The position numbers and the translations under genes are program-made. Positions 15,362 to 51,379 of a stretch of DNA of 64,000 nucleotides are shown piece by piece (within the stretch, counting starts at the first letter, position 1; each line of letters begins with the position of its first letter). The stretch is taken from NCBI GenBank assembly GCA_965371515.1, contig CBDUYR010000009.1:4602-68601 (forward strand). Direction: 5' to 3'. The DNA is from an uncultured bacterium (lineage in GTDB: Bacteria > Krumholzibacteriota > Krumholzibacteriia > Krumholzibacteriales > Krumholzibacteriaceae). Below the pieces are notes generated by a model. The model ran no database searches. It saw only the letters and a list, made by a program, of their open reading frames with translations, and had not been told where the DNA came from.

Positions 15362-17010
15362 TCGCCCTCCGTCTTCACGGCTTCGGCCTGCGCTTGGTCG
15401 GCCTGTGCTTGGTCGGCCTGTGCTTGCTCAGCCTGTGCTTGCTCAGCCTTCGCAAGCTCCTGCTTCTGGGCCGCGTAGGCGAACATCTCGTTCAGGGTCG
15501 AGGCCTCGTTAAACATCTCAAGAACCGCGTTGACCTCATCATCCTCGGGAAGGGTGGCCATGTAGGCCCCTTTCGTCCCGTAGAGCTTCCGGAAGACTTC
15601 GCGCCTGATCCCCAGCTCGACGTAATCGATGTTCTCCTCAGTCCAGCTGTCCTCCTCGTACTCGAATTCCTTCGCGTCGAGGTATTCACGGAACTCCTTC
15701 ATCACGTCGTCTGTGACAACGAAGTCTTCGCCTACCTGCTTGTGCTCAGCCGTGTAGTGGACGGCGAACGAGAAGAATATGCTTTTGATCTCGAGGGCGC
15801 GCTGCAAGTCGGTCCATTTGGGCAATTCCATCACCCAGTCGGGCGTGATGCCTCCGCCGCCGTAGACGATGCGTCCGCCCGCGGTGTAGTACTCCTTCGT
15901 CGCATCATCTTCATCGACGATCTCGTTCCCCTCACGATCGCTGTCCTTGTGGATACTTCGTCCGCTCGGAGTGAAGTACTTCTGAGTGGTCAGTTTCAGC
16001 GCCGAATCCCGGCCTATCTTGAAGACGGTCTGGACCGAGCCTTTGCCGAAGGTCGGCTGGCCGACGATGAGGCCGCGGTCCCAGTCCTGCAGCGCGCCCG
16101 AGACGATCTCGGACGCCGAGGCGCTGGCACCGTTGACGAGCACAACAACGGGATAATCGTTGTGAACGTTCTTTCCGTTCGAATAGAACTTCCGGCTGTC
16201 GTCGGGCAGGCGGCTCTCCGTGTAGACGATCATCTTTCCCTTGTCGAGAAAGAGATCGGATACGTGGAACGCTGCGGTGAGAAGGCCGCCGGGGTTCGAC
16301 CTGAGATCGATCATTGCCCCCTTGATACCTTCCTTCTCCATCCCGTCGAGTATGGCGTCAAGGTCACGCGCCGTGTTCTCGGCGAACCTGGCGATCCTCA
16401 CGTAGCCGACACTGTCTATGACGTCGTAATAAGTGATGCTGGGCACGGTGATGATCTCGCGGGTTATGGTCACAGCCAGCGAGTCGATCTCGTTGCCGGC
16501 GGCCTCACGCCCCACGGTGATGTTGACCTGAGTGCCGGGCGCTCCCCTGAGCTTCCCGACCGCCTCGTCGCTGCTCCACCCTTCGGTGGACTCGCCCTCT
16601 ATCTCGACGATCCTGTCACCAGCCTGGATACCCACCCTGTACGCCGGTGTATCCTCGATCGGGGATATCACCGTCGGAAACCCGTCCCTCACCGTAATCG
16701 TGATGCCGAGACCTCCGAACTCGCCCTTCGTGTCTATCATGAGGTTCTCGTACTGCCGCTTGTCGAGATACACAGAATGCGGATCGAGTTCCTCGAGGAT
16801 CCCGCGGATGGCGTCGTCGATTACGTCACCGAGCTCCTTCTCATCGACATAGAAGTCGAGGACCCTGGTCAGGACCTCGTTCAGCCTGTCTATCTCTTCG
16901 AGAGAAGTCTCCCTGTCTCTGCGCTGCTCCCCCGCTATTACATAGACCGCCGCTGCCACGAGCAGTATCACGGCCAGAGCCGATATCGCGAATCTCTTGT
17001 CGAGTCTCAA
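15358..17010 (-). CDS. ctpA: Carboxyl-terminal processing protease (S41, CtpA-like) with PDZ domain
   Basis: N-terminal TM. PDZ segment. S41 catalytic region LVNGASASASEIVSGALQD. C-terminal (AEQAQ/ADQAQ)n tail. Confidence 0.85.
   Translation of the reverse strand: MRLDKRFAISALAVILLVAAAVYVIAGEQRRDRETSLEEIDRLNEVLTRVLDFYVDEKELGDVIDDAIRGILEELDPHSVYLDKRQYENLMIDTKGEFGGLGITITVRDGFPTVISPIEDTPAYRVGIQAGDRIVEIEGESTEGWSSDEAVGKLRGAPGTQVNITVGREAAGNEIDSLAVTITREIITVPSITYYDVIDSVGYVRIARFAENTARDLDAILDGMEKEGIKGAMIDLRSNPGGLLTAAFHVSDLFLDKGKMIVYTESRLPDDSRKFYSNGKNVHNDYPVVVLVNGASASASEIVSGALQDWDRGLIVGQPTFGKGSVQTVFKIGRDSALKLTTQKYFTPSGRSIHKDSDREGNEIVDEDDATKEYYTAGGRIVYGGGGITPDWVMELPKWTDLQRALEIKSIFFSFAVHYTAEHKQVGEDFVVTDDVMKEFREYLDAKEFEYEEDSWTEENIDYVELGIRREVFRKLYGTKGAYMATLPEDDEVNAVLEMFNEASTLNEMFAYAAQKQELAKAEQAQAEQAQADQAQADQAQAEAVKTEGD
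15382..15456. repeat. 15-bp tandem repeat x5 (cggcctgtgcttggt and variants), encoding (A[ED]QAQ)n at the CtpA C-terminus
   Basis: Direct reading. Confidence 0.8.
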
Positions 17011-17141
17011 TGGAGACCTCCCCTTGTGTTGTTCAGTGCATCATCCCGGCCAGCGGGATATCCGTGCGCTCCCCCATGGGGCGCCACCCGCGGTACCCCT
17101 GAATATGGGGCCACCGGGAATCGGAATCAAACGCTTATTAA

Positions 17142-17804
17142 TTACAGGCTTTTTAACCCCGGCAGTGCCCGCAGGTTCCGTAGAACCGCCTCTATCACCT
17201 CGTCGATGGGAACGGAAGCATCTATGACCGCGACCCTGTCCGGCTCCCTCGATGCGATCCGCAGATATCCTTCCCTGACCTTCTCGTGAAAGGTCCTCTT
17301 CTCGAGTTCCAGCCTGTCCCTGCTCCGCATCCCTTCCGCCTCCCGCCTGTCAGGCCCCCTCTCGAACCCGTCGCTGACCTCGAGATCGAGCAGATATGTC
17401 CTGTCCGGCACCGCTCCCGCCACGGCGAACGAATTGAGGTCGGCCACGACATCCTCGCCGAGCCCCCTGGCCCAACCCTGGTACGCGACCGACGCGTCCA
17501 TGAACCTGTCGCAGAGAACACTCGTCCCGCTCTCCAGCGCGGGCCTTATCACCTCGCCCACGAGCTGTGCGCGGCTGGCCACGTAGAGAAGCAGCTCAGC
17601 CTGCGGAGAGATCGATGTGTTCGCCGGATCGAGCAGCATCTCCCTGATCTTTTCCGAGATCTCGTTTCCTCCCGGCTCGCGGGTGATGATGCATTCTAGA
17701 CCGGCCTGCAGGAACCTCTCCAGAATTGCTCGAGCCACCGTGGATTTGCCCGATCCCTCTATACCTTCGAAGGTTACAAAATATCCCTGTTTATCCTCAG
17801 TCAT
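17142..17804 (-). CDS. tmk: Thymidylate kinase
   Basis: P-loop FEGIEGSGKST. TMP-binding REPGG. Lid region. Confidence 0.85.
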   Translation of the reverse strand: MTEDKQGYFVTFEGIEGSGKSTVARAILERFLQAGLECIITREPGGNEISEKIREMLLDPANTSISPQAELLLYVASRAQLVGEVIRPALESGTSVLCDRFMDASVAYQGWARGLGEDVVADLNSFAVAGAVPDRTYLLDLEVSDGFERGPDRREAEGMRSRDRLELEKRTFHEKVREGYLRIASREPDRVAVIDASVPIDEVIEAVLRNLRALPGLKSL

Positions 17805-30703: not shown

Positions 30704-30911
30704 AATCGAGCGTGCGGACGTTCCTGGCCTCGAGTCCCCGTTCGCCGTCGCTCAGATCGAACTCCACTAATTCACCCTCACTGAGCGTCCTGAACCCCTC
30801 CCCCTCGATGTCCGAGTAATGGACGTAGATCTCGTTGCCGCCCGTCTCCCGGCGGATGAAACCGTAGCCCCTGCTCTCATTGAACCACTTGACCTTGCCG
30901 CGTTCAGGCAA
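30702..30911 (-). CDS. cspA: Cold-shock protein (CspA family)
   Basis: CSD with RNP1-like KWFNESRGYGFI and RNP2-like VHYS. Confidence 0.9.
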   Translation of the reverse strand: MPERGKVKWFNESRGYGFIRRETGGNEIYVHYSDIEGEGFRTLSEGELVEFDLSDGERGLEARNVRTLD

Positions 30912-31103
30912 CGCTGGCCTCCCCCTCTTCCGACCGTTTCTGCATCATTGCTGGCGAATGGCGATAATAGCAGTTCTCCGGCCATCAATCAACCTCCGAT
31001 TTCCTTATATCCCAAAGATTTAAGCGATACCGCCCCCGCCCCTCTTTGGCACTTTTCTTGCGTGTTTGATTGCGGAAGATTACTCGGAAAGGATAAAAGT
31101 GTC

Positions 31104-32444
31104 ATGTCGAGGCTTCAGATACCGTACACCAGCGTACTGGTGGACCCGACCGATTACGATCCCGATCATTTTGAATCGGTCCTGAGAAAGTACCTCGGTG
31201 ACAGGCGCGGAGACCCAGTCGTCATCGAGGTGTTCAACGATCACGTTCAGTATTTGACGTTCATAAGGGATGGTCAGATCTACTGGTGCTGCACGAGCGC
31301 TCCGGACGACTTCAGCGGACTGTCCGTGCGGGAGTATTTCTCTTCGCTGCGCAGGACCCAGTTCCCGAAGGTGATTGTATACTCGGTCGACCTTCTGCTG
31401 TTCCATTCCCTCATCGTCTACCTCCAGACCACGCCCGAGCTGAAGGTCAGCTCGACTCTCGTCGACTTTGACGAGCTCCTCGACAGAATCGAATCCGAGA
31501 ACCGAAGCGCCCTCGTCACCGCCCTGCAGCCGGGTAACCTCGTGATGCTCAGATACAAGGAAGGCGTTCCTGTAGCTTGTTATCACGGTCTCCACACAGG
31601 CGCGTCGGGTGAGACGAGCCATCGCGAGAGCTTCCTCGTGAAGGTATACACGATGGCCGCGAGAGTCCCGTTTGAAATCAGGATATTCACCGAACTGGTC
31701 GTCACGCATTCCGAAGACGCGAGGCAGATACCCGATGATTTCGAGGGTCCTGTCCCGTCGTTCTTCCTCAGCCAGCCCCCGAAGCTGATCGTCAGATTGA
31801 AAAACAGGCCGCTGAAGACATACAACTTCACCGGCAAGCAGATCACGATCGGCAGGCTGCCCGAGAACGACATAGTGATAGACAACCTCAGCGTCTCGAG
31901 AAAGCATGCCGTCATCCATTCAGTCAGGTCCGGTTACGTCCTCCGCGACCTGGGCAGCAAAAACGGAACGCTTCTCAACGGCGAGAAAGTCGAGCACGGC
32001 GAACTCAAGGCCGGCGACTCGATAACGATCGGCAAGTACGAGATAATCTTTCAGATCAGCACCGGCGAGGAAAACACCACCGACACGCTCGACCAGACCA
32101 TCATCATCCCCCGCTTTCATAGTGAATCCGGCCATAAGGAGAAGGATCCGCTGAATAAACAGGCAGCCGCCCCCCCGAGACTGTACCGCCGTTCCGAGCA
32201 GGAGGAATACGCCATCGAGGGCGACAGATTCGTAATCGGCAGGGGCAGGGGATCGGATATCAAGCTGAAGGGCCTCTTCGCCCCCCGCGTAAAGGTAAGC
32301 ATCCACAGGAACGGACCCGACTGGATCATCCAGGCGGATGGGAAGAATAGCGTGACAGTCAACGGCGAGAAGATGGAGGAGAAGGTCCTGCAGGAAGAGG
32401 ATCTGATCGCCATCGGCTCGGAGGAATTCGTCTTCAAGCACTGA
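31104..32444 (+). CDS. Protein with an unknown N-terminal domain and two FHA domains
   Basis: FHA 1: ITIGRLPENDIVIDNLSVSRKHAVI ... GSKNGTLLNGEKV. FHA 2: FVIGRGRGSDIKL ... NSVTVNGEKM. The N-terminal 260 aa is unassigned (possibly DUF4388/roadblock-like). Confidence 0.7.
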   Translation: MSRLQIPYTSVLVDPTDYDPDHFESVLRKYLGDRRGDPVVIEVFNDHVQYLTFIRDGQIYWCCTSAPDDFSGLSVREYFSSLRRTQFPKVIVYSVDLLLFHSLIVYLQTTPELKVSSTLVDFDELLDRIESENRSALVTALQPGNLVMLRYKEGVPVACYHGLHTGASGETSHRESFLVKVYTMAARVPFEIRIFTELVVTHSEDARQIPDDFEGPVPSFFLSQPPKLIVRLKNRPLKTYNFTGKQITIGRLPENDIVIDNLSVSRKHAVIHSVRSGYVLRDLGSKNGTLLNGEKVEHGELKAGDSITIGKYEIIFQISTGEENTTDTLDQTIIIPRFHSESGHKEKDPLNKQAAAPPRLYRRSEQEEYAIEGDRFVIGRGRGSDIKLKGLFAPRVKVSIHRNGPDWIIQADGKNSVTVNGEKMEEKVLQEEDLIAIGSEEFVFKH

Positions 32445-32448
32445 TACA

Positions 32449-33177
32449 ATGAAATACTTAGTATTTTCAGATATTCATGGCAACGCGCAGGCTCTCGAGA
32501 AGGTCATCGAGGAGATCGCCGAGATCAGGCCCGATTTCGTCGTCTCACTGGGCGACGTCGTCGGCTACGGAGCGAACCCTTCGGACTGCGTCGACCTCGT
32601 CGACGAGCACTGCGACATCCGGGTCTGCGGCAATCACGATTTCGTGGCCGCCGGCCTGGCAGAGAGCGAGGACTTCAACGTCACCGCGAGGATATCGATC
32701 GAATGGACGAAGAGCTCGCTTTCCGCACGGCAGAAGGAACTTCTCGCTGCCTACGATACTGTCAGGCGGCACGGGGAGTGCCTGTTCGCGCACTCCTCCC
32801 CCATCTCTCCCCTCGACTGGGAATACATCTACACTACAGGACAGGCGGAGAGGATCTTCAGGGAGACCGACGCCAGATTCATCTTCATAGGACATACGCA
32901 CGTGCCGGGGATCATCAGCCACGACCCGGTATCAGGATACACGGTGGAGAACAGCTCGAGGATCGAGGCCGAACCAGGCCGTCGATACCTGATAAATGCG
33001 GGAAGCATCGGTCAGCCGAGGGACGGTGTCAGCGCAGCGAGCTTCGCCGTCATCGACGTGCAGCGAAGCAGGATCAGCATGCGGAGGATCCCTTACGACG
33101 TGACGGAAGCCCAGGAGAGGATCAGGGCGGAAGGACTGCCCGAATCACTCGCCTCGAGGCTCACCCTTGCGAGATGA
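32449..33177 (+). CDS. PPP-family metallophosphoesterase (putative Ser/Thr protein phosphatase)
   Basis: Motifs DIHGN, GDVVGYG, GNHD, GHTH. Confidence 0.7.
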   Translation: MKYLVFSDIHGNAQALEKVIEEIAEIRPDFVVSLGDVVGYGANPSDCVDLVDEHCDIRVCGNHDFVAAGLAESEDFNVTARISIEWTKSSLSARQKELLAAYDTVRRHGECLFAHSSPISPLDWEYIYTTGQAERIFRETDARFIFIGHTHVPGIISHDPVSGYTVENSSRIEAEPGRRYLINAGSIGQPRDGVSAASFAVIDVQRSRISMRRIPYDVTEAQERIRAEGLPESLASRLTLAR

Positions 33178-34922
33178 GAGAGATGGAAGAAAGAAACTAC
33201 CAGATACTGAGCACCCTCGCCACCGGCGGAACCGCCGTACTGTACAAGGCGATCCAGAAATCTCTCGACCGCGAGGTGGTCATAAAGAGGCTCCATTCCC
33301 ATCTCACGTCCGACACGAATTTCACGAGACGTTTCGAGGTGGAGGCCAAAGCCGCGGCAAGCCTCGACCACGAAAATATCGTCCGTATCATCGATTCGGG
33401 CAACTCCGAGGGGAACTACTTCATAGTGATGGAATACATCGACGGTTTCTCGCTCAGCGAGATCCTCGAGAAGCACGGCCTGATCGACGACGAGCTCACC
33501 CTGCTGATAGCGCGTGAGATCTGCATCGGTCTCGATCACGCCCACCAGCACGGGATTATCCACAGGGACATCAAGCCGGCCAACATCATGATCACATCGA
33601 CCGGCCAGGTAAAGATCACCGATTTCGGGCTTGTAAAACTGATCGGCAACCAGCTCCAGCATACGGTAGCCGACACACTGCTCGGCACGCCCCTCTACAT
33701 GTCGCCCGAACAGGCAATCGGCGACGGCATCGACGGACGCAGTGATATCTTCTCCCTCGGCACGATCTGTTACGAAATGGTCACTGGAAAACAGCCCTTC
33801 ACAGGGAACACATATGCAGCCGTCATACAGAGGATAATCGAAGGTCACATCCCACATCCCTGCCGCGTCAACGAAAAGGTATCCCCCGAAATCAGCCGCA
33901 TCATCATGAAGGCTCTCAGCAGGGAACCATCGAAGAGGTACGGGACCGCTCTCGAGATGGCCAGAACGATAGAGACATGCATCGGCCAGGAGAAAGTCTG
34001 GTCGCTGAGGAACAGGGTCCGCAGACTCGTCTGCGGGCACGACCCGCTCGAGACCGTCGCCGAGTCCACCCCCAGGCGCCGACGCAGGGGAAGCGCGAAA
34101 AAATGGCTCGCCGGCATGGCGGCCGCCGCTGTGGTGATCGCGTCCGGCTACACCGCTGTCGAGCGCCCCGACATCATCCGGGGACTGAGGACGAAGGTAG
34201 AAGGCGTGCTGTCGGGTTTGAGTACGGAAAAGCCCGAAGGGCTGCTCGATGCTTCGAACACTCCCGGAGGATTGATGGAAAGCATGTTCACTGCGGCCGC
34301 AGACACCGGCGCGGTGGAGACCGATTCCCTGGCGGCAGTGACGGAGACATTCGATCCCGTGTCACCAGCCGGACCGCCCGAAGGGATCGCGCCCGAACCT
34401 GACACTCTCGCGGCCGTCAACGAGCCCGCCCGCGAAGAGATTTCATCCGACGGGCAGGACGAGAAACCGGTCGTCGAAGAGGAACCGGCGCCCGCCGTCG
34501 GCCTGATCGACATCTACGTCGAGCCCGAGGCCGAGATACACATCGACGGGCGCTGGCGCGCATCGACCGACAGGTTCGGTCCTGTGGAACTCTCCGCAGG
34601 GCCTCACGATATTACGCTCAAGCAGCGCGATTACAGGGAATACACCGAGAGGATCGTGATCAGGAAGGGGGAGCTGTCGCGGAGGAGGATCGAACTGCAG
34701 CGCGTTACAGGCAGCCTTGATTTTACAACGGTCGCCGGAGCGAGCGTCTTCGTCAACGGAAAATTCCACGGGATTACTCCGCTTAAGAACCCGATACAGC
34801 TGACTTCGGGTAAATATCTCGTCGAGCTGAAGAAGCACGGTTATCTCACGTGGACCGGCGAGGTAGACATCCCGTCGAGTGAGAAACTCTCCCTGAAGAT
34901 CAACATGATCCAGCGCCAGTAA
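33174..34922 (+). CDS. Ser/Thr protein kinase with TM segment and C-terminal PEGA-like domains
   Basis: Hanks motifs (GGTAVLYKA ... VVIKRL, HRDIKPANIM, DFGL, SPE). TM segment (LAGMAAAAVVIASGY). PEGA-like beta domains. ATGA overlap with the phosphatase. Confidence 0.8.
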   Translation: MREMEERNYQILSTLATGGTAVLYKAIQKSLDREVVIKRLHSHLTSDTNFTRRFEVEAKAAASLDHENIVRIIDSGNSEGNYFIVMEYIDGFSLSEILEKHGLIDDELTLLIAREICIGLDHAHQHGIIHRDIKPANIMITSTGQVKITDFGLVKLIGNQLQHTVADTLLGTPLYMSPEQAIGDGIDGRSDIFSLGTICYEMVTGKQPFTGNTYAAVIQRIIEGHIPHPCRVNEKVSPEISRIIMKALSREPSKRYGTALEMARTIETCIGQEKVWSLRNRVRRLVCGHDPLETVAESTPRRRRRGSAKKWLAGMAAAAVVIASGYTAVERPDIIRGLRTKVEGVLSGLSTEKPEGLLDASNTPGGLMESMFTAAADTGAVETDSLAAVTETFDPVSPAGPPEGIAPEPDTLAAVNEPAREEISSDGQDEKPVVEEEPAPAVGLIDIYVEPEAEIHIDGRWRASTDRFGPVELSAGPHDITLKQRDYREYTERIVIRKGELSRRRIELQRVTGSLDFTTVAGASVFVNGKFHGITPLKNPIQLTSGKYLVELKKHGYLTWTGEVDIPSSEKLSLKINMIQRQ

Positions 34923-38182: not shown

Positions 38183-41100
38183 ATGAAAAACGAGCCAGGA
38201 TTCACCTCACGCTATGCGATCAAGAAGGCACTCGGTGCCTATTCCCCATGGCAGGGGTTCGGTGTCACCGATTCCCTCAGTGGTAAGGACTACCTCCTCT
38301 TCTCGCTGGTCATCCCAGTCGAGACATCGATATCAACAGACGATCTGCTGATGAGGGATTACCTCTTCGCCGACGCGGCCGGCGACAACATCCGCGCCCT
38401 CTCGATCCAGGACAACGGCGGCGGCGTGTTTTTCCTTCTTCCCTGGCAGGAACTCGTACCAATCACGAAGATGCTTCCCTCCCTCAAACCCGAAGAAAGT
38501 CTGGAGCTGACTCGCTCCCTGACATCCACCTTTCTCGACTGTATATCGACGGGGCGGTTTTTTCACAACCTCTCGATCGAATCCGTCGTAATGCAGGGAA
38601 CCTCGGCCGGCATCCTCCCGACCGCCTATCTCGTCCCGGAGGCTGTGCTCGACAGGCTCGGTGCTTCGCGCGGGGACGGCAGCGGCGAGAACCTCTTCGA
38701 CGACCTGAACGCTTTCGGCGAACTGCTTGCCCTCTTGTGCAGGTATCTTCCCGCGGAACACTCCACCGCATGCGCGGAAACGGCCGAGAAGCTGCGGGCA
38801 ATCGGGCCCAGGACCGGTGACAATCTCTTTCCCCTCATCGAGAAGCTCGGTGAACTGGCAGGGAAAAAATCCGGAACTCCCGTCGTACTGGCCGGAAGGA
38901 AACCGGTGCTGAAGAACCATTCAGCGGTGATGAACCTCGTGAGACAGGCAGCGTTCAGATCTCGCGAAGATAGAAAGCAGATGGTGATCGTCTCGGGCCG
39001 GGCGGGCGAGGGCAAGACATCCCTGCTCGAGGAGATGGCGAGAAAACTGAGCGGGGAATGGGGATTCGAGGGCGATGGTATAGCCGGGGACCAGAGCGTC
39101 TTCAGTGATTTCCGGGACCGTGAGGAAAGTCCCGAGGCCGAGTTCACGATCCATGACGACCATCACCAGGATCCGGTCCTGAGCGGCCTCATCGTCGACC
39201 GTCTCTCCCACGACCTGGAGAAGAGCAGGCTCGCCGTCATCGGCCTGAGCGACGATTCGCCGGCCTGGTTCTCCGACGCTGTCCGTTCGGAGGGCCGCGA
39301 GAGAGGCTTCCATATTACCGATATCGAGATATCCGACCCGAGTTTCGCCCGGAAAAGTGGAGCGGTACTGAAACTTCTCCCGAAAGAACAGCGGACCGCC
39401 GTGAAGAAGACATTCAGCTGCAACGACAGCTTTGCCGTCGTGGAGCTCAAGACAAGGCTGGCCGCTGAAAACGCGACCGCGGACAGAACGGTCGGCAACG
39501 TCATAGATTTTCTCGACGACGAGGAAAGGTCGGTCCTTTCATTCATCGCCGTTTTCAGGTTCGAGGTTCCTCTCTCCATCCTCAAGGAGATCTTCTCCAC
39601 CGAGGAGGGCCGCTTCTACAGGATCCTGCACCGCCTGGTCACGCTGGACATCATCCGTAAGAAGGCGGGCAGATCGTGTTTCGCCAACGACGGCTTCTGC
39701 ACGCTCTTCAGCATCAGCGGCAAGAGTATCTCTTCGATGATAGAGGAATCGATCGATCCCGAACGGCGAGTGCAGCTTCACAGGAACATCGCCCAGATTC
39801 TCAAGGAGGCGCAGGGAGCGCCCGCCGCGTATATTTTCTACCACCTCGTACGGTCGGGCGACATGCAGGAAGCCGCGTTCAAGGGGCTGAGGGTCTTCAA
39901 GCTGCTCCTCACCCGGAAGCGCCTTAACGCGATAAATTCATTTAACGACGGATACATCACCCTCGGTCTCGACCGTCACCTCCCGATGGAGATGAGGCTG
40001 AACCTGCTCCTCGAACTGGGAAATTACTATGCGAACATCGGCAAGATCGAGAAGGCCGAGGAGTTCTTCAGGAATTGCCGTGAGGAAACGAGCACGAGCG
40101 ACAGGTGGCAGAGCCACAGGGAACTAGCAGTCGAGGCGATCAGGAAAGAATGTGAGATCCTCGAGAAGCGCGGCGAGTTCATAGTCGCCGAGGAGCTGCT
40201 CAAAAAAGCTCTTGAGACACATGGCGAGCATATAATGGCCCAGGAGAGGGCGAAGCTCTACAACGATATCGCATGGGTATACTACCGCCTCGGCAAGTTC
40301 GACAAGTCGTGGGAAAACTGCCTCCTCGTCCACAAGCTGCTCGACAAGAAGCAGCACCCGATGGAACTGGCCCAGTCCTACAACCTCATGGGCGCGATCA
40401 ACTGGAACAGGAGCAAGTACGACGAGGCCCTACTCTGCCACAAGAAATGTCACGCGCTGCGCGAGGACTGCAACGATGAACTCGGGGTCGCGGCCAGCTT
40501 CAACAACCTCGGCCTCGTCTACCGCTCGATGGGAAGGATCAAGGAGGCACTCGAGAGTTTCACGAAGAGCATGCGCATCAAGCAACGCAACAACAACCGC
40601 CCCGGTCTCGCGGCGGTCCATCTCAACATAGCCCTCGCCTGTCTCGACACAGAGGAGCTCGAGAAGGCCGAGTCGAACTGCATGACGGCTGTCAAACTGG
40701 CTGAGGATCTCGGCAATCAGCAGCTGCTCGCGGAGATCTACGGGACCCTCGGCGAGATCCACTTCAGGAAGGGCGATCATACCGAGACGCGGAACCATTA
40801 TTTCAGGGCGCTTCACATATGCCAGAAAACACGCTCGCTGCGTGAGAAGGCCGTCGTGCTGAGAAGGCTCGGAGAGCTCGGCCTCGTCGAGGGAAAGATC
40901 GACGAGACGAAGGACCTCCTGGGAGAAGCAAGAGAGCTCAACAAGCAGATCGGATCGCGCCTCGAGACGGCGCTGCTCGACCTGCTAGATGGAAGAGTGC
41001 AGCTCGCCGAGGGTAAGCGAGAGCACGGGCGGCGCATCCTCGAGGAAACGAGTTTCGAGCTGTCGCTGCTCGGCAGGAAGGGAACGGCCGCCTCCATCGC

Positions 41101-42817
41101 GTCGGAGCTCGGTGAGCTATACCTCGAGGAGGGGAACGAACCTCTCGCACGCGAGTACCTTCTCAGGGCAATCTCCCTCTTCGGCGAATCGGAGAAACTC
41201 CCCACCAAGGTTTCCCATCTCCAGAAACATCTCGAGCAGAGAACTGCCCTCGACCTCGAAAAGATCCACTCCGATTCGGCGAGGTTCAGAGTCCTCTGCC
41301 GCCTCATCTCCCTGATACGGACTATCCACGATCCCGACAGGCTGCACAAAACGATTACAGAAATGGCGATGAAAGTGACGAGCATGGAGCGGGCAGCGCT
41401 CATCCTCCAGAGCGATGGCCAGGACACTTACAGGATCCTCGCGTCGATCGGCGACTTCGACTCGGAGTCGATACTGACCGACCACAACATCATAGCGATA
41501 CTGAACATCGCCAGGCAGCTCGGATACCCGCTCGATATTTCGAGGACGAGGATCCCGTCCGGCAAGGTCGAGGAGAATTTCCTCTCTGATCATCCGGGGA
41601 TTATCTGTACGCCCCTCTGGATCCACGAGGAAGTGACGGGTTATCTCTACCTCGACGCAAGCCGTGAAGGGGCCGGGACGACCGACGAGGACCACACATT
41701 CCTCGTCGCGTTCAGCCAGCAGATCGCCCTGGGCCTGGAAAGGATGCTCCTTTCCGACAGGCTCAGGCAGAAGGAAAAGCCGTCCGGAGAGAAGGTATCG
41801 GTGATCGCCAGTCCGGGCGACAGGGTCACATTCCAGGACATCATCGGGAAGTCGGCGGCGATAAGGAAGATCTACGACCTCATAGACGGCATCAAGGACA
41901 TGGACACGACGGTCCTGCTCACCGGCGCGAACGGGGCGGGAAAGGACCTCATAGCGAAAACGATCCACTACACCGGCCCGAGGAAAGACAAGCCGTTCCA
42001 CACACTGAACTGCCCGGCGCTCCCCGACCAGCTGATCGAGAGCGAGCTGTTCGGTCACGAGAAGGGCTCCTTCACCGGCGCGTACAAGCAGAAAATCGGC
42101 CATTTCGAGTCGGCCAGCGACGGCACGATCTTCCTCAACGAGATCGGTGACCTTCCGCTGAAACTCCAGCCGAAACTCCTGCGGGTACTCGAAGACATGA
42201 GGTTCTTTCGCGTCGGCGGAACGAAGGAGATCAAAACGAGCGCGAGGATTATCTGCGCAACGAACAAAGATCTGATGAAACTGGTCAAGGAAGGCACGTT
42301 CCGTGAGGACCTCTATTACAGGATCAACATATTCCCGATCAGGGTACCGGGGCTGGCCGAGCGCAGGGAGGACATCAAACTACTCTGCAACCATTTCTTG
42401 ACCATGTACTGCCGCCTGTACAATACTGCAACAAAGCGTATCTCGCCCGAGGCGATGGTCTACATGACCGAGTACGACTGGCCGGGCAACGTCAGGGAGC
42501 TGGAAAACACGATCAACCGGCTCATGATCATCTCGAAGAAGGACACGATCCTTCCCGAGGACCTGCCGGTCAATATCGTCAAGCACAGGGAAAGCGTCGA
42601 GACCAGGTCGCTCAGCACTCTCGAGGAGATGATCGAATCGATCCTCGAAACGGTCGAGTTCTCCGACAGCGACCCGATACTGCCCAGGGTAAAGCGGACG
42701 CTGATAAGCAAGGTAGTGGAAAAAACAGGAGACAAGACGAGGGCCGCGCAGATACTCGGTATCTCGAAGCCCACTCTCTACAGCCACCTCAGGAGCCATG
42801 AGCGGAAAAACCGCTAG
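38183..42817 (+). CDS. 1544-aa sigma54-dependent transcriptional activator fused to N-terminal pseudokinase-like, STAND P-loop NTPase, TPR and GAF modules
   Basis: The C-terminal part is a sigma54 AAA+ activator: LLTGANGAGKDLIAKTIHY, ESELFGHEKGSFTGA (GAFTGA-type), RVPGLAERREDI, plus a Fis-type HTH (AAQILGISKPTLYSHL). A GAF-like region lies around aa 1000-1150. TPR repeats span about aa 560-950. The P-loop is VIVSGRAGEGKTSLLEEMARKL. The N-terminal 170 aa is kinase-like but lacks the catalytic Lys/Asp. Confidence 0.8.
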   Translation: MKNEPGFTSRYAIKKALGAYSPWQGFGVTDSLSGKDYLLFSLVIPVETSISTDDLLMRDYLFADAAGDNIRALSIQDNGGGVFFLLPWQELVPITKMLPSLKPEESLELTRSLTSTFLDCISTGRFFHNLSIESVVMQGTSAGILPTAYLVPEAVLDRLGASRGDGSGENLFDDLNAFGELLALLCRYLPAEHSTACAETAEKLRAIGPRTGDNLFPLIEKLGELAGKKSGTPVVLAGRKPVLKNHSAVMNLVRQAAFRSREDRKQMVIVSGRAGEGKTSLLEEMARKLSGEWGFEGDGIAGDQSVFSDFRDREESPEAEFTIHDDHHQDPVLSGLIVDRLSHDLEKSRLAVIGLSDDSPAWFSDAVRSEGRERGFHITDIEISDPSFARKSGAVLKLLPKEQRTAVKKTFSCNDSFAVVELKTRLAAENATADRTVGNVIDFLDDEERSVLSFIAVFRFEVPLSILKEIFSTEEGRFYRILHRLVTLDIIRKKAGRSCFANDGFCTLFSISGKSISSMIEESIDPERRVQLHRNIAQILKEAQGAPAAYIFYHLVRSGDMQEAAFKGLRVFKLLLTRKRLNAINSFNDGYITLGLDRHLPMEMRLNLLLELGNYYANIGKIEKAEEFFRNCREETSTSDRWQSHRELAVEAIRKECEILEKRGEFIVAEELLKKALETHGEHIMAQERAKLYNDIAWVYYRLGKFDKSWENCLLVHKLLDKKQHPMELAQSYNLMGAINWNRSKYDEALLCHKKCHALREDCNDELGVAASFNNLGLVYRSMGRIKEALESFTKSMRIKQRNNNRPGLAAVHLNIALACLDTEELEKAESNCMTAVKLAEDLGNQQLLAEIYGTLGEIHFRKGDHTETRNHYFRALHICQKTRSLREKAVVLRRLGELGLVEGKIDETKDLLGEARELNKQIGSRLETALLDLLDGRVQLAEGKREHGRRILEETSFELSLLGRKGTAASIASELGELYLEEGNEPLAREYLLRAISLFGESEKLPTKVSHLQKHLEQRTALDLEKIHSDSARFRVLCRLISLIRTIHDPDRLHKTITEMAMKVTSMERAALILQSDGQDTYRILASIGDFDSESILTDHNIIAILNIARQLGYPLDISRTRIPSGKVEENFLSDHPGIICTPLWIHEEVTGYLYLDASREGAGTTDEDHTFLVAFSQQIALGLERMLLSDRLRQKEKPSGEKVSVIASPGDRVTFQDIIGKSAAIRKIYDLIDGIKDMDTTVLLTGANGAGKDLIAKTIHYTGPRKDKPFHTLNCPALPDQLIESELFGHEKGSFTGAYKQKIGHFESASDGTIFLNEIGDLPLKLQPKLLRVLEDMRFFRVGGTKEIKTSARIICATNKDLMKLVKEGTFREDLYYRINIFPIRVPGLAERREDIKLLCNHFLTMYCRLYNTATKRISPEAMVYMTEYDWPGNVRELENTINRLMIISKKDTILPEDLPVNIVKHRESVETRSLSTLEEMIESILETVEFSDSDPILPRVKRTLISKVVEKTGDKTRAAQILGISKPTLYSHLRSHERKNR

Positions 42818-42995
42818 ACAGCTGTCCCCCTTCATCCGGATCATGATCGCGATCTTCCTCATTCTGCTCGCGGTCTGGATCGTGCTGAAGATCTATATAG
42901 CCCGCACTGAGCCTTCCGCGCCACCGGCCGACGGGACGAAGGTGAGTGTCTTCGTTACCGCCGGGCTCAAGGGGTACCGCGAACCCTGCGGCTGA
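42798..42995 (+). CDS. Short TM-anchor ORF, in frame with the next ORF across a single TGA
   Basis: ATG with an AGGAG just upstream. One TM helix. Ends REPCG-TGA. The downstream ORF continues in the same frame. Confidence 0.3.
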   Translation: MSGKTARQLSPFIRIMIAIFLILLAVWIVLKIYIARTEPSAPPADGTKVSVFVTAGLKGYREPCG

Positions 42996-43016
42996 AAGAA
43001 GGACACCTTTTCCGGG

Positions 43017-43832
43017 ATGGCCAGGTGGGCTTCCCTGATTGACAAACGAAGGACGCAGCATCCCGCGATACTTCTCGACGTGGGAGATTTCTGCAATCCC
43101 GCTCAGGGAGGCACGGCCGCTTTCGACCTTGATTACTTCTTTGAGGGGATGCGGATGATCGGCTATGCCGCCGTAGGCGTCGGGGCCGGCGAGATCAAGT
43201 TCGGGCGCAAGCGTCTCCTCGAGAGAGTAGACCGGGCGGGATTCGAGCTGCTCTCAGCCAACATTTATGACAAACGAGGCGGGGAGATGCTCGGCGCGAA
43301 ATACACGATAATAAAGGTCGGCGGGAGGATGACACTGAGCGGCACGAAGGGTGGTTTGAAGATAGGCGTCTTCTCCATCGCCCTTCCGCTCTTCATACAC
43401 GAGATAGATCCGAATATCCCGCTGTACTACGATGTCCTCGACCCGAGGATCGCCGCACTCGAGGCAGTATCGGTCCTGAAGGAAAAGGGTTGCGACCTGA
43501 TCGTGGCTCTGAGCTACCAGGGCTGGTCCAGGAGCCTCGCCCTTGCCGAAAGCATCGACGGGATCGACATAGTGATCAACGGGAGGCGCGAGCACAATCA
43601 GCCCACAGGGGAAAAGGTCGGGCAGACGACGGTCGTCGACACAGGGATCAGGAGGATATCGCTCACCGAGGTGTTCGTAGAGTGGGCAGGCGGCAGCCCC
43701 CGGGTAAAGGTCCGCGAGTCGGGGCCCGAAGCGAAGAGAATGAAGGGCAGGAACGATCTCGTCGAGCTCGAGAAGAAATACGAACGCGAGCTCAAGGCCC
43801 GCGGCATCAAGGATGCCCGGGAGGGCAGCTGA
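43017..43832 (+). CDS. Degenerate 5'-nucleotidase/metallophosphatase-like domain protein (catalytic His/Asn residues replaced)
   Basis: Resembles the 5'-NT N-terminal domain (LLDVGDF, LLSANIYD, DLIVALSYQGW ... GIDIVINGRREH). GNHE is replaced by GAGE, and there is no DxH. Confidence 0.5.
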   Translation: MARWASLIDKRRTQHPAILLDVGDFCNPAQGGTAAFDLDYFFEGMRMIGYAAVGVGAGEIKFGRKRLLERVDRAGFELLSANIYDKRGGEMLGAKYTIIKVGGRMTLSGTKGGLKIGVFSIALPLFIHEIDPNIPLYYDVLDPRIAALEAVSVLKEKGCDLIVALSYQGWSRSLALAESIDGIDIVINGRREHNQPTGEKVGQTTVVDTGIRRISLTEVFVEWAGGSPRVKVRESGPEAKRMKGRNDLVELEKKYERELKARGIKDAREGS

Positions 43833-43910: not shown

Positions 43911-44666
43911 ATGAGACTGGACAAGGTGACCGGTTTTCTCGAGGAGACCCTGAGTCTTGAGTCGTTTTCAGCGGATCCGTCCATGAACGGGTTACAGGTC
44001 GAGGCGTCGAGTGAAGTGAGGAAAGTCGCGCTGGCGGTGGATGCCTGCAGAGAATCGATCAGCCGTGCGGCCCGCCGCGACGCCGACCTGCTGATCGTCC
44101 ATCACGGCCTCTTCTGGGGCGGCATGGTGCCGATTACGGGGATCATGGCCGCGCGTGTGAAGGCCCTTCTCGACAGGAACGTCTCACTCTACGCCGCCCA
44201 CCTCCCGCTCGACTGCCACCCGGAGATCGGAAACAACTCCCGGATAGCGAGCGTGCTCGGTATCGGGAAAACGGAGCACTTCGGCAAGTATGCCGGCGTC
44301 GACATCGGGCTCTGCGGCAAGCTGTCCAGGCCGCTGAAGATAGAGGGCCTGCGCCGGAAACTTTCGGGCATCCTCGATTCACCCGTCCAGACCTTTACAT
44401 TCGGGCCGGCTGTGGTAAGGAAGCTGGGCATCGTCTCGGGCGGCGGCGCTTCCCTCACCCAGGCAGCCGCAGAAGCGGGCTGCGACGCGCTCCTTACGGG
44501 CGAGACGTCACACTCGTCATATCACACGGCGAGGGAAAACGGGATCAGCCTGATATTCGCCGGTCATTACGCCTCGGAGACATTCGGCATCAAGGCGCTC
44601 GGCGAGCTCATGAAGGAGAAGCTGGGCCTGCAGACGTTCTTCATCGACCTGCCGACCGGGCTCTAG
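43911..44666 (+). CDS. Nif3-family dinuclear metal-centre protein
   Basis: NIF3 signatures (LLIVHHGLFW, AGHYASE). Confidence 0.8.
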   Translation: MRLDKVTGFLEETLSLESFSADPSMNGLQVEASSEVRKVALAVDACRESISRAARRDADLLIVHHGLFWGGMVPITGIMAARVKALLDRNVSLYAAHLPLDCHPEIGNNSRIASVLGIGKTEHFGKYAGVDIGLCGKLSRPLKIEGLRRKLSGILDSPVQTFTFGPAVVRKLGIVSGGGASLTQAAAEAGCDALLTGETSHSSYHTARENGISLIFAGHYASETFGIKALGELMKEKLGLQTFFIDLPTGL

Positions 44667-44696
44667 CCACTTCGAAGGGATAACAATAAAACAAAA

Positions 44697-44720
44697 GGGG
44701 AAGGGCCCGCGCCCTTCCCC
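44697..44720. terminator. Bidirectional terminator hairpin between the convergent Nif3 and tricorn-like genes
   Basis: ggggaagggc-ccgc-gcccttcccc. T-rich on the minus-strand side (ttttgttttattgtt) and weakly T-rich on the plus side. Confidence 0.5.
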
Positions 44721-44744
44721 TTCTCCATTCATATATCACCGCTC

Positions 44745-48855: not shown

Positions 48856-49809
48856 ATGAGATATTTGTTCGCTGTTATCACAGTGGGCCTTGTGCTGTCC
48901 TTTATGGTCGAGCCGGCGGCGGCGGACGAGGGAATCCCCGCGGCCATCCTCCTCTCCTGCTCGGGCAAGGTTACCGTAGTGAGAAGTGACGGCAAAACAG
49001 TGCCCGGGAGTTTCGGCCTGCAATTGTACGCCGGCGATGAAGTGAAGACCTCCGCGGCTTCGCAAGCGGAGATCCACCTGGAAAGCGGCATGTGGCTCCA
49101 GGTGGGCCCCAGCAGCAGCATGAAGATCCAGGGCGCAAGGACGATGGACCAGTCGTCGGGCGTCCAGGTCGGAGACAAGAGCTTCAAGGTCGTCCAGAAC
49201 ATGATGCGCCTGAAGGACCCCAAGGGTACCAGTTCGCTCGCGGCGCTCAGGTCCTCCCCCGGCAAACCGGAGATAGCGCTCATATCACCCTGCCAGACCA
49301 GGGTACTCACGGCGAAACCGACATTCGAATGGGAATCAAGCGGTCTCGATGAGGCATTGCTCCTCACTGTCTACAACGAGAAAGGCGTCCACTACGAGAC
49401 GAAGATACCGGGCGGCTCGAGCTACGACTATCCTTCCGGCGCCCCCGCGATCTCACCGGGCATATCATATTCCTGGACCGTCGAGACGACCGATCCGCTG
49501 CGGGTCCCTCCCCTCCACAGCACCACCGCATTCTTCGAGGTAATATCGGAGGACGATGCCGGGAAACTCGACGGGTCGCTCGGGATGATCGATCCGGAAG
49601 AGATCCCCAACAGCTCCACATATCACTTCCTGAGGGCAAGCGTCTACTTCGACCACGGGCTCCTCGAGAACGCCATCAGCGAGATGGAGCGAGCCATGGA
49701 GGGAGACGCAGGTACTAAGGAGATGCATTCGATCCTCGCAAGGCTCTACGCCGAGGCGGGACGGACCGGGGAAGCAATGTCCGAATACGACCGCATCTTC
49801 GAGAAATAG
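48856..49809 (+). CDS. Secreted protein with FecR-like N-domain and C-terminal TPR-like helices
   Basis: Signal peptide. FecR-like stretch (GKVTVVRSDGKTVPGSFGLQLYAGDEVKTSAASQAEIHLESGMWLQVGPSS). Confidence 0.45.
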   Translation: MRYLFAVITVGLVLSFMVEPAAADEGIPAAILLSCSGKVTVVRSDGKTVPGSFGLQLYAGDEVKTSAASQAEIHLESGMWLQVGPSSSMKIQGARTMDQSSGVQVGDKSFKVVQNMMRLKDPKGTSSLAALRSSPGKPEIALISPCQTRVLTAKPTFEWESSGLDEALLLTVYNEKGVHYETKIPGGSSYDYPSGAPAISPGISYSWTVETTDPLRVPPLHSTTAFFEVISEDDAGKLDGSLGMIDPEEIPNSSTYHFLRASVYFDHGLLENAISEMERAMEGDAGTKEMHSILARLYAEAGRTGEAMSEYDRIFEK

Positions 49810-49864: not shown

Positions 49865-51379
49865 GTGGACAGTATCGCCGGATTCGAGATCGTCAGACCC
49901 ATCGGCAAGGGGGGCATGGGCATTGTCTATCTCGCCCGGGATGAGACGCTGCAGCGAGACCTCGCCATAAAAGTCCTCAGGAAGGAACTCATCGGATCCG
50001 AGGGATCGGAAAGGTTCATCAGGGAAGCGAGGGCCTGCTCGAGAATCAACCATCCCAACATCGTCACCGTTTATTCGGCCGGCAAGCACGATGGCGATCT
50101 GTACATCGCGATGGAGCTCCTGGAGGGCCGTACCCTGCGAGAGACGATCAAGGCGGAGGAAAAGATCGAATGGCGGAAGGCGGTTGCCTGGACGGTCTCG
50201 CTCCTCTCGGCACTCCAGCGGCTTCACGACGAGGGGATCATCCACCGCGACCTCAAGCCCGAAAACATCATGATCAGCTCCCAAGGCGGCGTAAAGCTCA
50301 TGGACTTCGGCATCGCCCACGTCGATTCGGAGAACAGGATCACCATCGACACCTCGATGCTTGGAACGGCCCAGTACATGTCGCCTGAGCAGACAACGGG
50401 GATGAAAACCAGCGCGAGGAGCGACATCTTCTCACTGGGAACGATCCTGTACGAAATGCTGTCGGGAGAGCTTCCCTTCGACGCTCCCCATCCGATGGCG
50501 GTCCTCTACAGCATCGCCAACGAGAAGCAGAGACCCCTCGACGAACTCGTCGACGATCTGCCGGACGGGCTCCCGGCCATCATCGACAGGGCCCTCGAGA
50601 AGGATTCTGAAGCGAGGTTCGAGAGCGCCGGCGCATTCTCGGAAGAGCTCGCCTCGCTGGCGGGATTATCCGGCGGAGGGGCTTACGGAGCATGGAAACG
50701 GGCGCCTCTGTGGCGCAGGATCGCCGTACCGACAGCGACCCTCGCAGTTGCGGCCGCTCTCATCGCCTGGGCTTTCACGCGAGGTCCGGAGAAAGGCGAC
50801 AGGACAAAGGCAGAGAACCACACCCACCTGGGCCAGCAATACGAGGAAGAGAATAACAAGCCCGGTGCACAGGTGGAGTACCGTAACGCGATCATAGCCG
50901 ATCCGAGCTGGGAGGTCCCGTGGAACAATCTCGCCATGATCGAACTCAGCGAAAATGACTATGAGGAGGCCGATTCCCTCCTCGGCGAGGCCTTGGAGAG
51001 GAACTCGAAATACGCGGGAGCGCTATACAACATGTCCGCTGTCTACTGGGACAAATCGGATCTCGAAAGCGCCGAAAGCTTCCTGCGCAGGGCTATCGAC
51101 GCCGAAACCCTGTTCATGCCCGCATACAACAACCTCGGGAAACTCCTGATCACCACCGATCGGCCCGCTGAAGCCGCCGCCATACTTGATAACGCCCTCT
51201 CGAAGATCGACTCGACGACTTATCCCGACGAAGTGAAAGCGTGCCTTCTCAAAAACAGGGGGATAGCCGCCGCGGAGATGGACGACGCGAGCGCCGAGAC
51301 CTGGTGGCGGAAATCTCTCGAGATAATGCCCGACAATGATGAAACCAGAAGGCTGCTCGAGAGCGTCGACGCTCTATAG
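49865..51379 (+). CDS. Ser/Thr protein kinase with TM segment and extracytoplasmic TPR domain
   Basis: Hanks motifs (GKGGMGIVYLA, AIKVL, HRDLKPENIM, DFGIA, SPEQ). TM segment (IAVPTATLAVAAALIAWAF). TPR repeats. Confidence 0.8.
   Translation: MDSIAGFEIVRPIGKGGMGIVYLARDETLQRDLAIKVLRKELIGSEGSERFIREARACSRINHPNIVTVYSAGKHDGDLYIAMELLEGRTLRETIKAEEKIEWRKAVAWTVSLLSALQRLHDEGIIHRDLKPENIMISSQGGVKLMDFGIAHVDSENRITIDTSMLGTAQYMSPEQTTGMKTSARSDIFSLGTILYEMLSGELPFDAPHPMAVLYSIANEKQRPLDELVDDLPDGLPAIIDRALEKDSEARFESAGAFSEELASLAGLSGGGAYGAWKRAPLWRRIAVPTATLAVAAALIAWAFTRGPEKGDRTKAENHTHLGQQYEEENNKPGAQVEYRNAIIADPSWEVPWNNLAMIELSENDYEEADSLLGEALERNSKYAGALYNMSAVYWDKSDLESAESFLRRAIDAETLFMPAYNNLGKLLITTDRPAEAAAILDNALSKIDSTTYPDEVKACLLKNRGIAAAEMDDASAETWWRKSLEIMPDNDETRRLLESVDAL

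Follow-up and report, generated by a model that had tools for sequence, protein, structure and literature searches.

The window (the whole stretch of DNA analyzed, 64 kb) contains two open reading frames that share one frame and are separated by a TGA at 42993-42995 and seven sense codons (KKDTFSG). The first, 42798-42995, encodes 65 amino acids ending in ...GYREPCG-TGA and includes a hydrophobic helix at approximately residues 11-37, with basic residues K4, R7 and R14 N-terminal to or at the helix. The second opens with an ATG at 43017 and encodes 271 amino acids, with its stop at 43832. On re-reading the sequence, we found the coordinates, the shared frame, the REPCG-TGA ending and the KKDTFSG-MARW readthrough given in the preliminary description of this locus to be exact. 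The features at and around the two frames, several of them predicted, are as follows.

38183..42817, + strand: 1544-aa sigma-54-dependent activator (AAA_16, TPR and sigma-54 AAA+ by Pfam), upstream of the putative selenoprotein gene
42798..43832, + strand: predicted UshA-like selenoprotein coding sequence, 344 codons plus stop, with selenocysteine (Sec) as codon 66 (continuous frame; uninterrupted homologs)
42828..42908, + strand: signal-anchor transmembrane (TM) helix, residues ~11-37 (from the sequence; helix 11-37 in the AlphaFold model of ortholog P0001)
42984..42995, + strand: P-C-G-U motif, CCC TGC GGC TGA, with the putative Sec codon at 42993-42995 (TGA conserved; Cys in homologs; NCBIfam UshA_like_PCGU)
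43014..43035, + strand: candidate bacterial SECIS hairpin, GGGA-U-GGCC / AGGUG / GGCU-UCCC (folding, conservation, bSECIS criteria)
43017..43832, + strand: ligand-depleted metallophosphatase domain (5'-nucleotidase N-terminal type) plus C-terminal helix (alignment, P0001 model, Foldseek)
43830..43832, + strand: the gene's true terminator, likewise TGA (reading of the frame; stop identity varies among orthologous loci)
43911..44666, + strand: NIF3/DUF34 family gene, a conserved downstream neighbor (family match, synteny)

We found that the in-frame TGA is conserved. The preliminary description had proposed aligning orthologs across the junction, and we compared the window protein with sequences from independent Krumholzibacteriota assemblies that are 44-90% identical to it in amino-acid sequence. 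Among 31 distinct orthologs, 29 had a TGA at exactly this codon, following YREPC(G/T) (15/15 Krumholzibacteriota genome loci and 14/16 further metagenome sequences). TAA or TAG was found at the internal codon in none of the 31. On this comparison, the recurrence of a TGA at one fixed codon is far beyond what chance would be expected to produce. More distant TGA-bearing homologs (L017 and L053) have the identical EPCG-TGA motif. Approximately half of the ORFs in the window end normally at TGA, indicating that the genetic code has not been reassigned.

Homologs without the TGA are uninterrupted across the junction. A Cys is aligned to the TGA, in a (P)CGC motif, in four long homologs (P0052, P0056, L016 and L054) and in seven short homologs (P0094, P0096, P0135, P0137, P0147, P0165 and P0201). 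The preceding Cys and the Sec are both replaced in P0001 (RGS), P0002 (GGA), P0018 (RGS) and P0068 (PGN), and three of these four homologs share the syntenic context. Joint replacement would be expected of two residues that function as a pair, and these four proteins are a natural experiment suggesting paired action. The orthologs P0001, P0002 and P0018, like the more distant Cys-form homologs, are single polypeptides across the junction.

These comparisons bear on the possibility that the locus contains two genuine genes, one for a 65-aa membrane peptide ending at the TGA and one for a 271-aa soluble protein starting at ATG 43017. Public gene calls are nearly always the 271-aa product beginning MARWAS, the Met is conserved in 30/31 sequences, and there is an AGGA in the spacer, 14-17 nt upstream of Met 43017. 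However, the spacer between the TGA and the ATG is invariably 21 nt and in frame (in all 30 family sequences with an ATG there). The internal stop is always TGA (29/29) even though the terminal stop varies (TGA in 10, TAA in 4 and TAG in 2 of 16 orthologous loci). One ortholog (L048) has GCG (Ala) where the Met would be, which leaves its downstream part unable to initiate at that position. Cys-form and non-Sec homologs are not divided at all, and the 271-aa product would lack both the export anchor and part of the core sheet (the VSVFVTA strand). Two separate genes thus seem quite unlikely, although some independent initiation at Met 43017 may occur.

We found a candidate SECIS element just downstream of the TGA. 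The preliminary description had reported no convincing SECIS-like hairpin within 30 nt; there is one at 43014-43035, with an apical loop beginning 27 nt past the UGA, near that 30-nt limit. The stem starts 18 nt from the UGA and has 8 bp (4+4) with one bulged U, the 5-nt loop is AGGUG, and the element overlaps the codons for G-M-A-R-W-A-S. Its fold energy is about -11.7 to -12.5 kcal/mol. In E. coli fdhF, the SECIS stem-loop lies within the coding sequence immediately 3' of the UGA; its stem has a bulged U, and its apical loop is small and contains G-U. The window hairpin is like this element in its placement, the bulged U of the stem and the G-U of the loop; the sequence differs. Published bSECIS criteria specify a loop of 3-9 nt, an upper stem of 4 bp or more, a G in the first two loop positions, a location 16-37 nt from the UGA and an MFE of -7.5 kcal/mol or lower (PMC13188914). 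A bSECIS prediction had also been proposed in the preliminary description, and the folded hairpin lies within every one of these limits (AGGUG, 4+4 bp, 27 nt, ~-12 kcal/mol). The bSECIS model itself is permissive, and therefore conservation of the hairpin and suppression of synonymous change carry most of the weight.

The hairpin is highly conserved. In an alignment of 26 sequences, 98% of cells were paired. There were no double compensatory substitutions in the stem in these 26 sequences, the only changes being G-C to G-U and one shift of the bulge. Covariation analysis is uninformative because the hairpin sequence barely varies, and the support for the putative element comes from conservation and not from covariation. 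Synonymous codon entropy was 0.44 bits under the hairpin versus 1.59 bits at 64 further conserved columns of four- or six-fold degeneracy (Mann-Whitney p = 1.8e-4), and individual synonymous sites under the hairpin were nearly frozen (GGG in 29/31, GCC in 30/31 and TCC in 26/26). Three TGA-bearing sequences (L048, L017 and L053) have different hairpins, with loops GUG, GUCU and GGUGUG, respectively, at a similar distance from the UGA. Folding of the Cys forms L016 and L054 gave no comparable hairpin. The 91-nt region folds no better than shuffled sequence (z = +1.05). In addition, the hairpin is almost intact in the non-Sec orthologs L040, L050 and L064, the sole change being GGG to GGA in L064, so the conserved GMARWAS peptide could account for some of the hairpin's conservation.

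We found that the encoded protein has a real but remote resemblance to 5'-nucleotidases. The fused protein had no domain match in Pfam, including PF00149 and PF02872. Its matches in NCBIfam were UshA-like, SoxB and cyclic-nucleotide phosphodiesterase models, and a profile of the family matched solved structures of the 5'-nucleotidase family down to E = 2e-19. The AlphaFold model of a full-length ortholog (P0001, 78% identical to the window protein; pLDDT 86.8) was compared with known structures using Foldseek. It matched 5'-nucleotidases, YfkN and SoxB (3ivd, 1ush, 3gve and 2wdc) with TM of 0.64-0.74 and E = 1e-17 to 1e-20. The codons for VSVFVTA, which forms the first beta-strand (E48-54 in the P0001 model), lie upstream of the TGA, and the window protein ends approximately 60 residues past the catalytic-type domain. 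UshA, YfkN, CD73 and SoxB have the metallophosphatase fold in common with the window protein. In contrast to it, they have no Cys-x-Sec motif; the window protein lacks the PF02872 substrate-binding domain and most of its dimetal ligands are substituted.

The loss of ligands is extensive. Relative to true 5'-nucleotidases, TNDxHG has become TAGLKG, GNHEF has become GAGEIKF, GHSH has become GRREH, and the His of motif IV is a Tyr (SYQG in the window). VGDF in the window keeps the D of the GD motif; most orthologs have G or N there. The loss is family-wide and extends to the intact Cys forms. With most of the dimetal ligands gone, these motifs suggest that the window protein is unlikely to be a phosphoesterase. 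The layout recognized in the preliminary description, an N-terminal anchor joined to a ligand-depleted metallophosphatase, was therefore correct by the TM helix, the fold matches and the alignment with true 5'-nucleotidases, and the same alignment bore out the loss of GNHE (now GAGE) and other ligands. That description had also placed the TGA within the region of the DxH motif. The resemblance to 5'-nucleotidases held up, but the DxH-equivalent lies approximately 10 residues upstream of the TGA, within ORF 42798-42995, and the TGA falls in the loop between motifs I and II.

The fused protein most likely belongs with a known group of selenoproteins. Its best NCBIfam match was NF041198, UshA_like_PCGU, described as 'UshA-like (seleno)protein' (97.7 bits, E = 6.1e-28, profile positions 3-300 of 519). 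The window protein is below the curated cut-off of 275 bits because it has no C-terminal tetraheme cytochrome; the long homolog P0056 is above it, at 295 bits. NF041198 is the 'COG0737 UshA-like' CxU selenoprotein family of Zhang & Gladyshev 2008 (PMC2398784), and UshA-like CxU selenoproteins are listed in PMC2398784, PMC9312934 and PMC13188914. The window protein and NF041198 have in common a homologous N-terminal 5'-nucleotidase-like domain, a P-C-G-U/C motif after strand beta-1 with interchange of Sec and Cys, degenerate metal-ligand motifs, and the character of an exported, membrane-tethered protein. They also differ. The window protein has no CXXCH motifs, whereas the long forms L016, L017, L053 and L054 have four each. 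It has a signal-anchor TM helix and not a lipoprotein signal. Finally, the window form occurs only in Krumholzibacteriota, where it follows a sigma-54 activator in a fixed operon. Distant homologs have lipoprotein signal peptides with lipobox-like sequences (LFSC, LLAC, LTGC and VAGC), implying an extracytoplasmic location. A second model, NF049981 ('UshA-like (seleno)protein family 2'; profile of 262 aa), likewise describes a short UshA-like domain selenoprotein, but its motif is CxxU and that of the window protein is CxU. The match to it was weak (20.5 bits versus a cut-off of 140) and covered only residues 50-133.

We looked for the Sec machinery and for other selenoprotein genes. Family scans of ~40 window proteins revealed no selA, selB or selD in the 64-kb window, and none was found in 21 related loci. 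ARAGORN likewise detected no tRNA-Sec, either in the window or in those 21 loci, and Rfam at gathering thresholds detected only a tRNA-Val over the 64 kb. We also scanned the window for further genes with an in-frame TGA and coding-like GC3 on both sides, and inspected two candidates. Neither is a selenoprotein: the TGA at 17287 is in an antisense shadow of an S41 peptidase gene, and the TGA at 62316 is the normal end of its gene, the product of which is presumably a Mg-chelatase-like ATPase.

Based on these results, we suggest that 42798-43832 is a single gene for a membrane-anchored UshA-like protein and that the TGA at 42993-42995 is most likely a Sec codon; we give this reading a probability of roughly 85%. 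The in-frame TGA is then most likely an annotation problem, neither a broken gene nor a new kind of system. The preliminary description had left a choice among a pseudogene, programmed recoding and a sequencing or assembly error. The conserved TGA, the Sec/Cys pairs, the hairpin and the PCGU family strongly favor recoding with Sec, and the evidence went against the other two.

Our results might also indicate readthrough of the UGA without Sec, either by near-cognate suppression (with Trp, Cys or Arg) or by a lineage-specific context effect. The hairpin would then be only a stimulator of readthrough, or a mirror of peptide conservation. The lack of Sec machinery in the 64-kb window and related loci fits this explanation. 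So do the CGA (Arg) that L050 has at the TGA position and the Trp in the database translation of P0071, the latter probably reflecting the code chosen by the gene caller. However, the position aligns specifically with the conserved Cys of a CxC motif in a curated (seleno)protein family, the hairpin follows the bSECIS rules, including the G/U in the loop, and TGA terminates normally both in the genome and in this same gene. We consider readthrough of this sort improbable.

A nonsense mutation in a decaying 5'-nucleotidase-like gene would account for the lost metal ligands as well as the TGA, and in a few close relatives the Cys/Sec motif has been replaced completely. But the identical 'lesion' is in 29 distinct sequences of 44-90% identity, none with frameshifts or extra stops, and dN/dS is 0.12 upstream of the TGA (65 codons) and 0.14 downstream of it (29 codons), indicating purifying selection on both sides. 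Both halves are also retained throughout the phylum. Loss of the ligands in intact Cys forms also argues against decay, and a pseudogene is very improbable. An error of sequencing or assembly, or a strain-specific change of a sense codon (e.g., TGC) to TGA, is extremely improbable, since the TGA is seen in dozens of independent assemblies, which cover many samples and projects (NCBI, ENA and JGI contigs).

If the TGA is a Sec codon, the hairpin at 43014-43035 would act as a bacterial SECIS and direct decoding of the UGA at 42993-42995 as Sec, and translation would end at the second TGA (43830-43832), where there is no hairpin of this kind. Insertion of Sec at the UGA is the step that we infer from sequence comparisons. 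The product would have 344 residues and an N-terminal membrane anchor, with a predicted topology that probably faces the periplasm. Its functional center would be Cys64-Gly-Sec66, placed by alignment in the loop after strand beta-1, beside the former metal site. This motif might cycle between selenenylsulfide and thiol/selenol forms, or might bind a soft metal or chalcogen. The fused tetraheme cytochrome c of the long relatives would exchange electrons with the motif; in the window protein, the motif would work with a separate partner. The window protein is probably a periplasmic Cys-Sec redox site.

The gene neighborhood is also conserved. The 3' end of the sigma-54 activator gene overlaps the start of the putative selenoprotein gene by 20 nt, and the adjacency and overlap were found in every Krumholzibacteriota locus with DNA reaching upstream (14 of 15 loci). 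The overlap suggests that the two genes may be co-transcribed and translationally coupled. No terminator-like sites were found on the + strand at either gene junction, and there is a strong terminator-like hairpin at 44693-44724; the NIF3/DUF34 gene is probably the last gene of the transcription unit. Conceivably, though we regard the idea as doubtful, the short cytochrome-less form is not a free-standing enzyme but a periplasmic Cys-Sec partner of the overlapping giant sigma-54 activator, sensing redox state or chalcogens. If this is true, the selenoprotein would be the input module of a transcriptional signaling system.

The finding has consequences for annotation. Public annotations, in genomes and metagenomes, are shortened to a 271-aa 'hypothetical protein' or '2',3'-cyclic-nucleotide 2'-phosphodiesterase', a call missing the membrane anchor as well as the first beta-strand and the sole plausible active-site motif. 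The short Krumholzibacteriota form also escapes the curated NCBIfam models. The locus is no new category: both the recoding mechanism and the family are known, and this is a well-supported case of them. What is new for the UshA-like selenoprotein family is the cytochrome-less, TM-anchored architecture. None of the papers searched names both Krumholzibacteriota and 'selenocysteine'. The gene suggests that Krumholzibacteriota use selenocysteine, which would be the first sign of this for the phylum.

We found that the predicted UshA-like gene is laid out across its internal TGA exactly as the preliminary description had read it.

42798-42995, plus strand: ORF1, 65 codons, from the ATG at 42798 to the TGA at 42993-42995; basic N-terminus and hydrophobic helix, ending ...VSVFVTAGLKGYREPCG-TGA
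Between the TGA at 42993-42995 and the ATG at 43017, plus strand: spacer of seven in-frame sense codons (KKDTFSG)
43017-43832, plus strand: ORF2, 271 codons, from the ATG at 43017 to the TGA at 43830-43832, in frame with ORF1

The start at 42798 sits 20 nt within the 3' end of the gene for a sigma-54-dependent activator. That description had offered three explanations for the TGA: a pseudogene, selenocysteine (Sec) recoding, and a sequencing or assembly error. Our results support Sec recoding of the UGA at 42993-42995, to which we give a probability of roughly 85%, on the basis of the conserved TGA, Sec/Cys pairs and a hairpin; the comparative data speak against the other two. Reassignment of the genetic code can be dismissed because TGA ends about half of the ORFs in the window, including the UshA-like gene itself.

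Searching a protein collection with the fused sequence returned approximately 45 relatives of 261-276 aa. Those that we aligned or read start at the same Met (MARWAS...) or a few residues from it, as is expected of gene callers halting at an in-frame TGA. Three relatives were full length (P0001, P0002 and P0018; 333-335 aa; P-numbers are homologous database proteins and L-numbers homologous DNA loci). We then compared DNA from 15 genome loci (44-90% identity), which come entirely or almost entirely from Candidatus Krumholzibacteriota MAGs, and additionally from 17 metagenome loci, translating the junction in every case. TGA occupied the identical codon after YREPC(G/T) in 29/31 distinct sequences, and none had TAA or TAG there. 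The two exceptions had a sense codon (GCC in L040, which encodes P0002, and CGA in L050). L050 retains the Cys and has CGA (Arg) where the others have TGA.

The junction translations also gave an in-frame spacer of 21 nt between TGA and ATG, without variation. The N-terminal helix and first strand were conserved among the orthologous sequences, and dN/dS was 0.12 for the 65 codons 5' of the TGA and 0.14 for the 29 codons 3' of it. In contrast to the internal TGA, the true terminator varied across 16 loci (TGA in 10, TAA in 4, TAG in 2). In L048, Ala replaces the conserved downstream Met, so the downstream part of that gene would be unable to initiate there. Taken together, the conserved TGA, fixed spacer, dN/dS, varying terminator and L048 are strong evidence that the region is neither a sequencing error nor a pseudogene nor a pair of independent genes.

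More distant homologues have a Cys opposite the TGA, within a C-G-C motif. Such Sec/Cys pairing is a standard signature for recognising selenoproteins (PMC13188914). CGC was found in long forms, which have a tetrahaem C-terminal region (P0052, P0056, L016 from Nitrospinales, and L054), and, in an exhaustive representative search, in short forms of 309-345 aa (P0094, P0096, P0135, P0137, P0147, P0165 and P0201). EPCG-TGA itself recurs in two distant homologues, L017 and L053. Both are long forms, and the Sec-position codon is TGA in these two and TGT or TGC in L016 and L054; L017 was binned as 'Rickettsiales', which looks like mis-binning. Both motif residues were swapped together in four homologues: RGS (P0001, P0018), GGA (P0002) and PGN (P0068). 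This joint replacement fits a pair acting as a couple. The rest of each of these four proteins is intact despite loss of the Cys and Sec positions, and P0001 (L064:2139-3146) and P0018 keep the same synteny. In another database protein, P0071, the Sec position is occupied by Trp (LEPCGWKK). This is probably a hidden selenoprotein call, the TGA having been translated with genetic code 4 by the gene-calling pipeline.

The preliminary description had seen no convincing SECIS-like hairpin within 30 nt of the TGA, but we found a candidate whose loop starts close to that limit.

43014-43035, plus strand: candidate SECIS hairpin, GGGA-U-GGCC / AGGUG / GGCU-UCCC; 8 bp with a bulged U

The stem starts 18 nt and the loop 27 nt after the UGA. 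The published bacterial SECIS (bSECIS) model calls for an apical loop of 3-9 nt that has a G among its first two nucleotides, an upper stem of 4 bp or more, a distance of 16-37 nt to the UGA, and an MFE of -7.5 kcal/mol or lower (PMC13188914). The hairpin lies within all four constraints of this model, which is a permissive one. All family members share the hairpin, and 98% of cells are paired (26 sequences); the stems vary only by GC/GU alternation and a shifted bulge, so this is not true covariation. Codons in the hairpin were nearly frozen at synonymous sites (GGG 29/31, GCC 30/31, TCC 26/26), and the Arg codons within it all had third-position G. Mean codon entropy was 0.44 bits in the hairpin; elsewhere in these genes, 64 conserved columns with four- or six-fold degeneracy averaged 1.59 bits (Mann-Whitney p = 1.8e-4). 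L048, L017 and L053 differ in downstream sequence and have other hairpins at a similar distance, with loops GUG, GUCU and GGUGUG. We found no comparable hairpin in the Cys forms L016 and L054. As caveats, non-Sec orthologues retain the hairpin, and the 91-nt region as a whole folded no better than shuffled sequence.

We found no selA, selB, selD or tRNA-Sec in the 64-kb window or the related loci. These were the DNA searched, so the Sec-decoding capacity of the source organism is predicted from evolutionary evidence alone. No further selenoprotein genes were found in the window. One plus-strand ORF (15394-17289) that seemed to continue past an in-frame TGA was rejected as an antisense shadow of two minus-strand genes.

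15358-17010, minus strand: S41 C-terminal processing peptidase, the real gene opposite the shadow ORF
17142-17804, minus strand: dTMP kinase, a real gene in the same region (15358-17804)

A Pfam search with the fused protein gave no match. The best NCBIfam match was NF041198 (UshA_like_PCGU, 'UshA-like (seleno)protein'; E = 6e-28), whose score of 97.7 bits falls short of the cut-off (275) and whose alignment spans only profile positions 3-300 of 519; SoxB and cyclic-nucleotide phosphodiesterase models matched more weakly. The PCGU of the family name corresponds to the PCG-TGA of the window gene. The 'COG0737 UshA-like' family of CxU selenoproteins is listed in tables of a 2008 GOS analysis and of 2022 and 2026 reviews (PMC2398784, PMC9312934, PMC13188914). 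In canonical NF041198 members (P0056, L016, L017, L053, L054), a lipoprotein or signal sequence precedes the UshA-like domain, which is followed by a helical linker and four CXXCH haem motifs. In contrast, the window protein ends after the first helix of the linker and lacks haem motifs, which makes it a short relative rather than an NF041198 equivalog. The representative search also returned proteins of 1000-3300 aa (P0072-P0078 and others) with two to five stretches matching the ligand-poor UshA-like domain.

An AlphaFold model of the orthologue P0001 (pLDDT 86.8, pTM 0.83) resembled 5'-nucleotidases, YfkN and SoxB (TM 0.64-0.74). However, alignment with true enzymes indicated that most canonical dimetal ligands are replaced (DxH to G.K, GNHE to GAGE, motif-IV His to Tyr, and the first His of GHxH to Arg). 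The Asp of the GD motif is the only ligand kept in the window protein, and most orthologues have G or N there. Unlike true 5'-nucleotidases, the window protein also lacks the C-terminal nucleotide-binding domain. Together, these differences make phosphoesterase activity unlikely.

Gene order was kept in all 15 Krumholzibacteriota loci, as far as each contig reaches.

Ser/Thr kinase with PEGA domain
Minus strand: heptosyltransferase
Minus strand: RsgA
PTS-EIIA (PtsN-like)
Zinc-ribbon protein
38183-42817, plus strand: sigma-54-dependent activator, 1544 aa, with AAA_16, long TPR and sigma-54 AAA+ domains
UshA-like gene, its start overlapping the activator's end
NIF3
Minus strand: tricorn protease

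The activator and UshA-like genes are syntenic across Krumholzibacteriota down to ~52% identity. No terminator-like site was found on the plus strand at the activator/UshA-like or UshA-like/NIF3 junctions; the matches were two weak ones within the activator coding sequence and a strong hairpin after NIF3. A sensing role for the UshA-like protein, hinted at solely by this tight coupling to a regulator, has a low probability. On either side of the locus, an FHA-domain protein and two Ser/Thr kinases (one with PEGA, one with TPR repeats) at 30819-34922 and 49865-51379 suggest a signalling-rich neighbourhood. Adjoining the TPR-containing kinase is a conserved 317-aa ORF (48856-49809, plus strand) with no Pfam match and 69-79% identity in closer Krumholzibacteriota loci. 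Elsewhere in the window, a LarC-type gene for nickel-pincer cofactor biosynthesis (9275-10822, minus strand) encodes LarC1 and LarC2 domains and ~165 extra N-terminal residues.

No feature of these proteins other than Cys-Gly-Sec/Cys is at once family-specific, conserved and chemically reactive. By alignment, this motif falls in the loop after strand beta-1, ~7-9 residues past the ancestral DxH position, which would place it beside the former metal site. Known redox-active shuttles include CxC motifs such as CGC, for example in the Erv2 tail and in CGC peptide mimics of PDI. The tetrahaem cytochrome fused in long forms and the family-wide export signals point to a periplasmic electron-transfer role. 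Taken with the joint replacement of the motif residues and the loss of metal ligands, these features suggest that the protein is a retired metallophosphatase scaffold that may carry a selenol/thiol redox site, tethered to the membrane in the periplasm. Alternatively, the same scaffold could hold a soft-metal/chalcogen-binding site. A sulfur or selenium substrate would be attractive given the kinship to SoxB, but is speculation.

The gene adds a new, unannotated short form to a known selenoprotein family and is not a new kind of system. In the literature searched, no paper had both Krumholzibacteriota and 'selenocysteine', and this phylum has not yet been discussed for selenium use. The finding helps annotation and is of mild interest for the biology of the UshA-like selenoprotein family.
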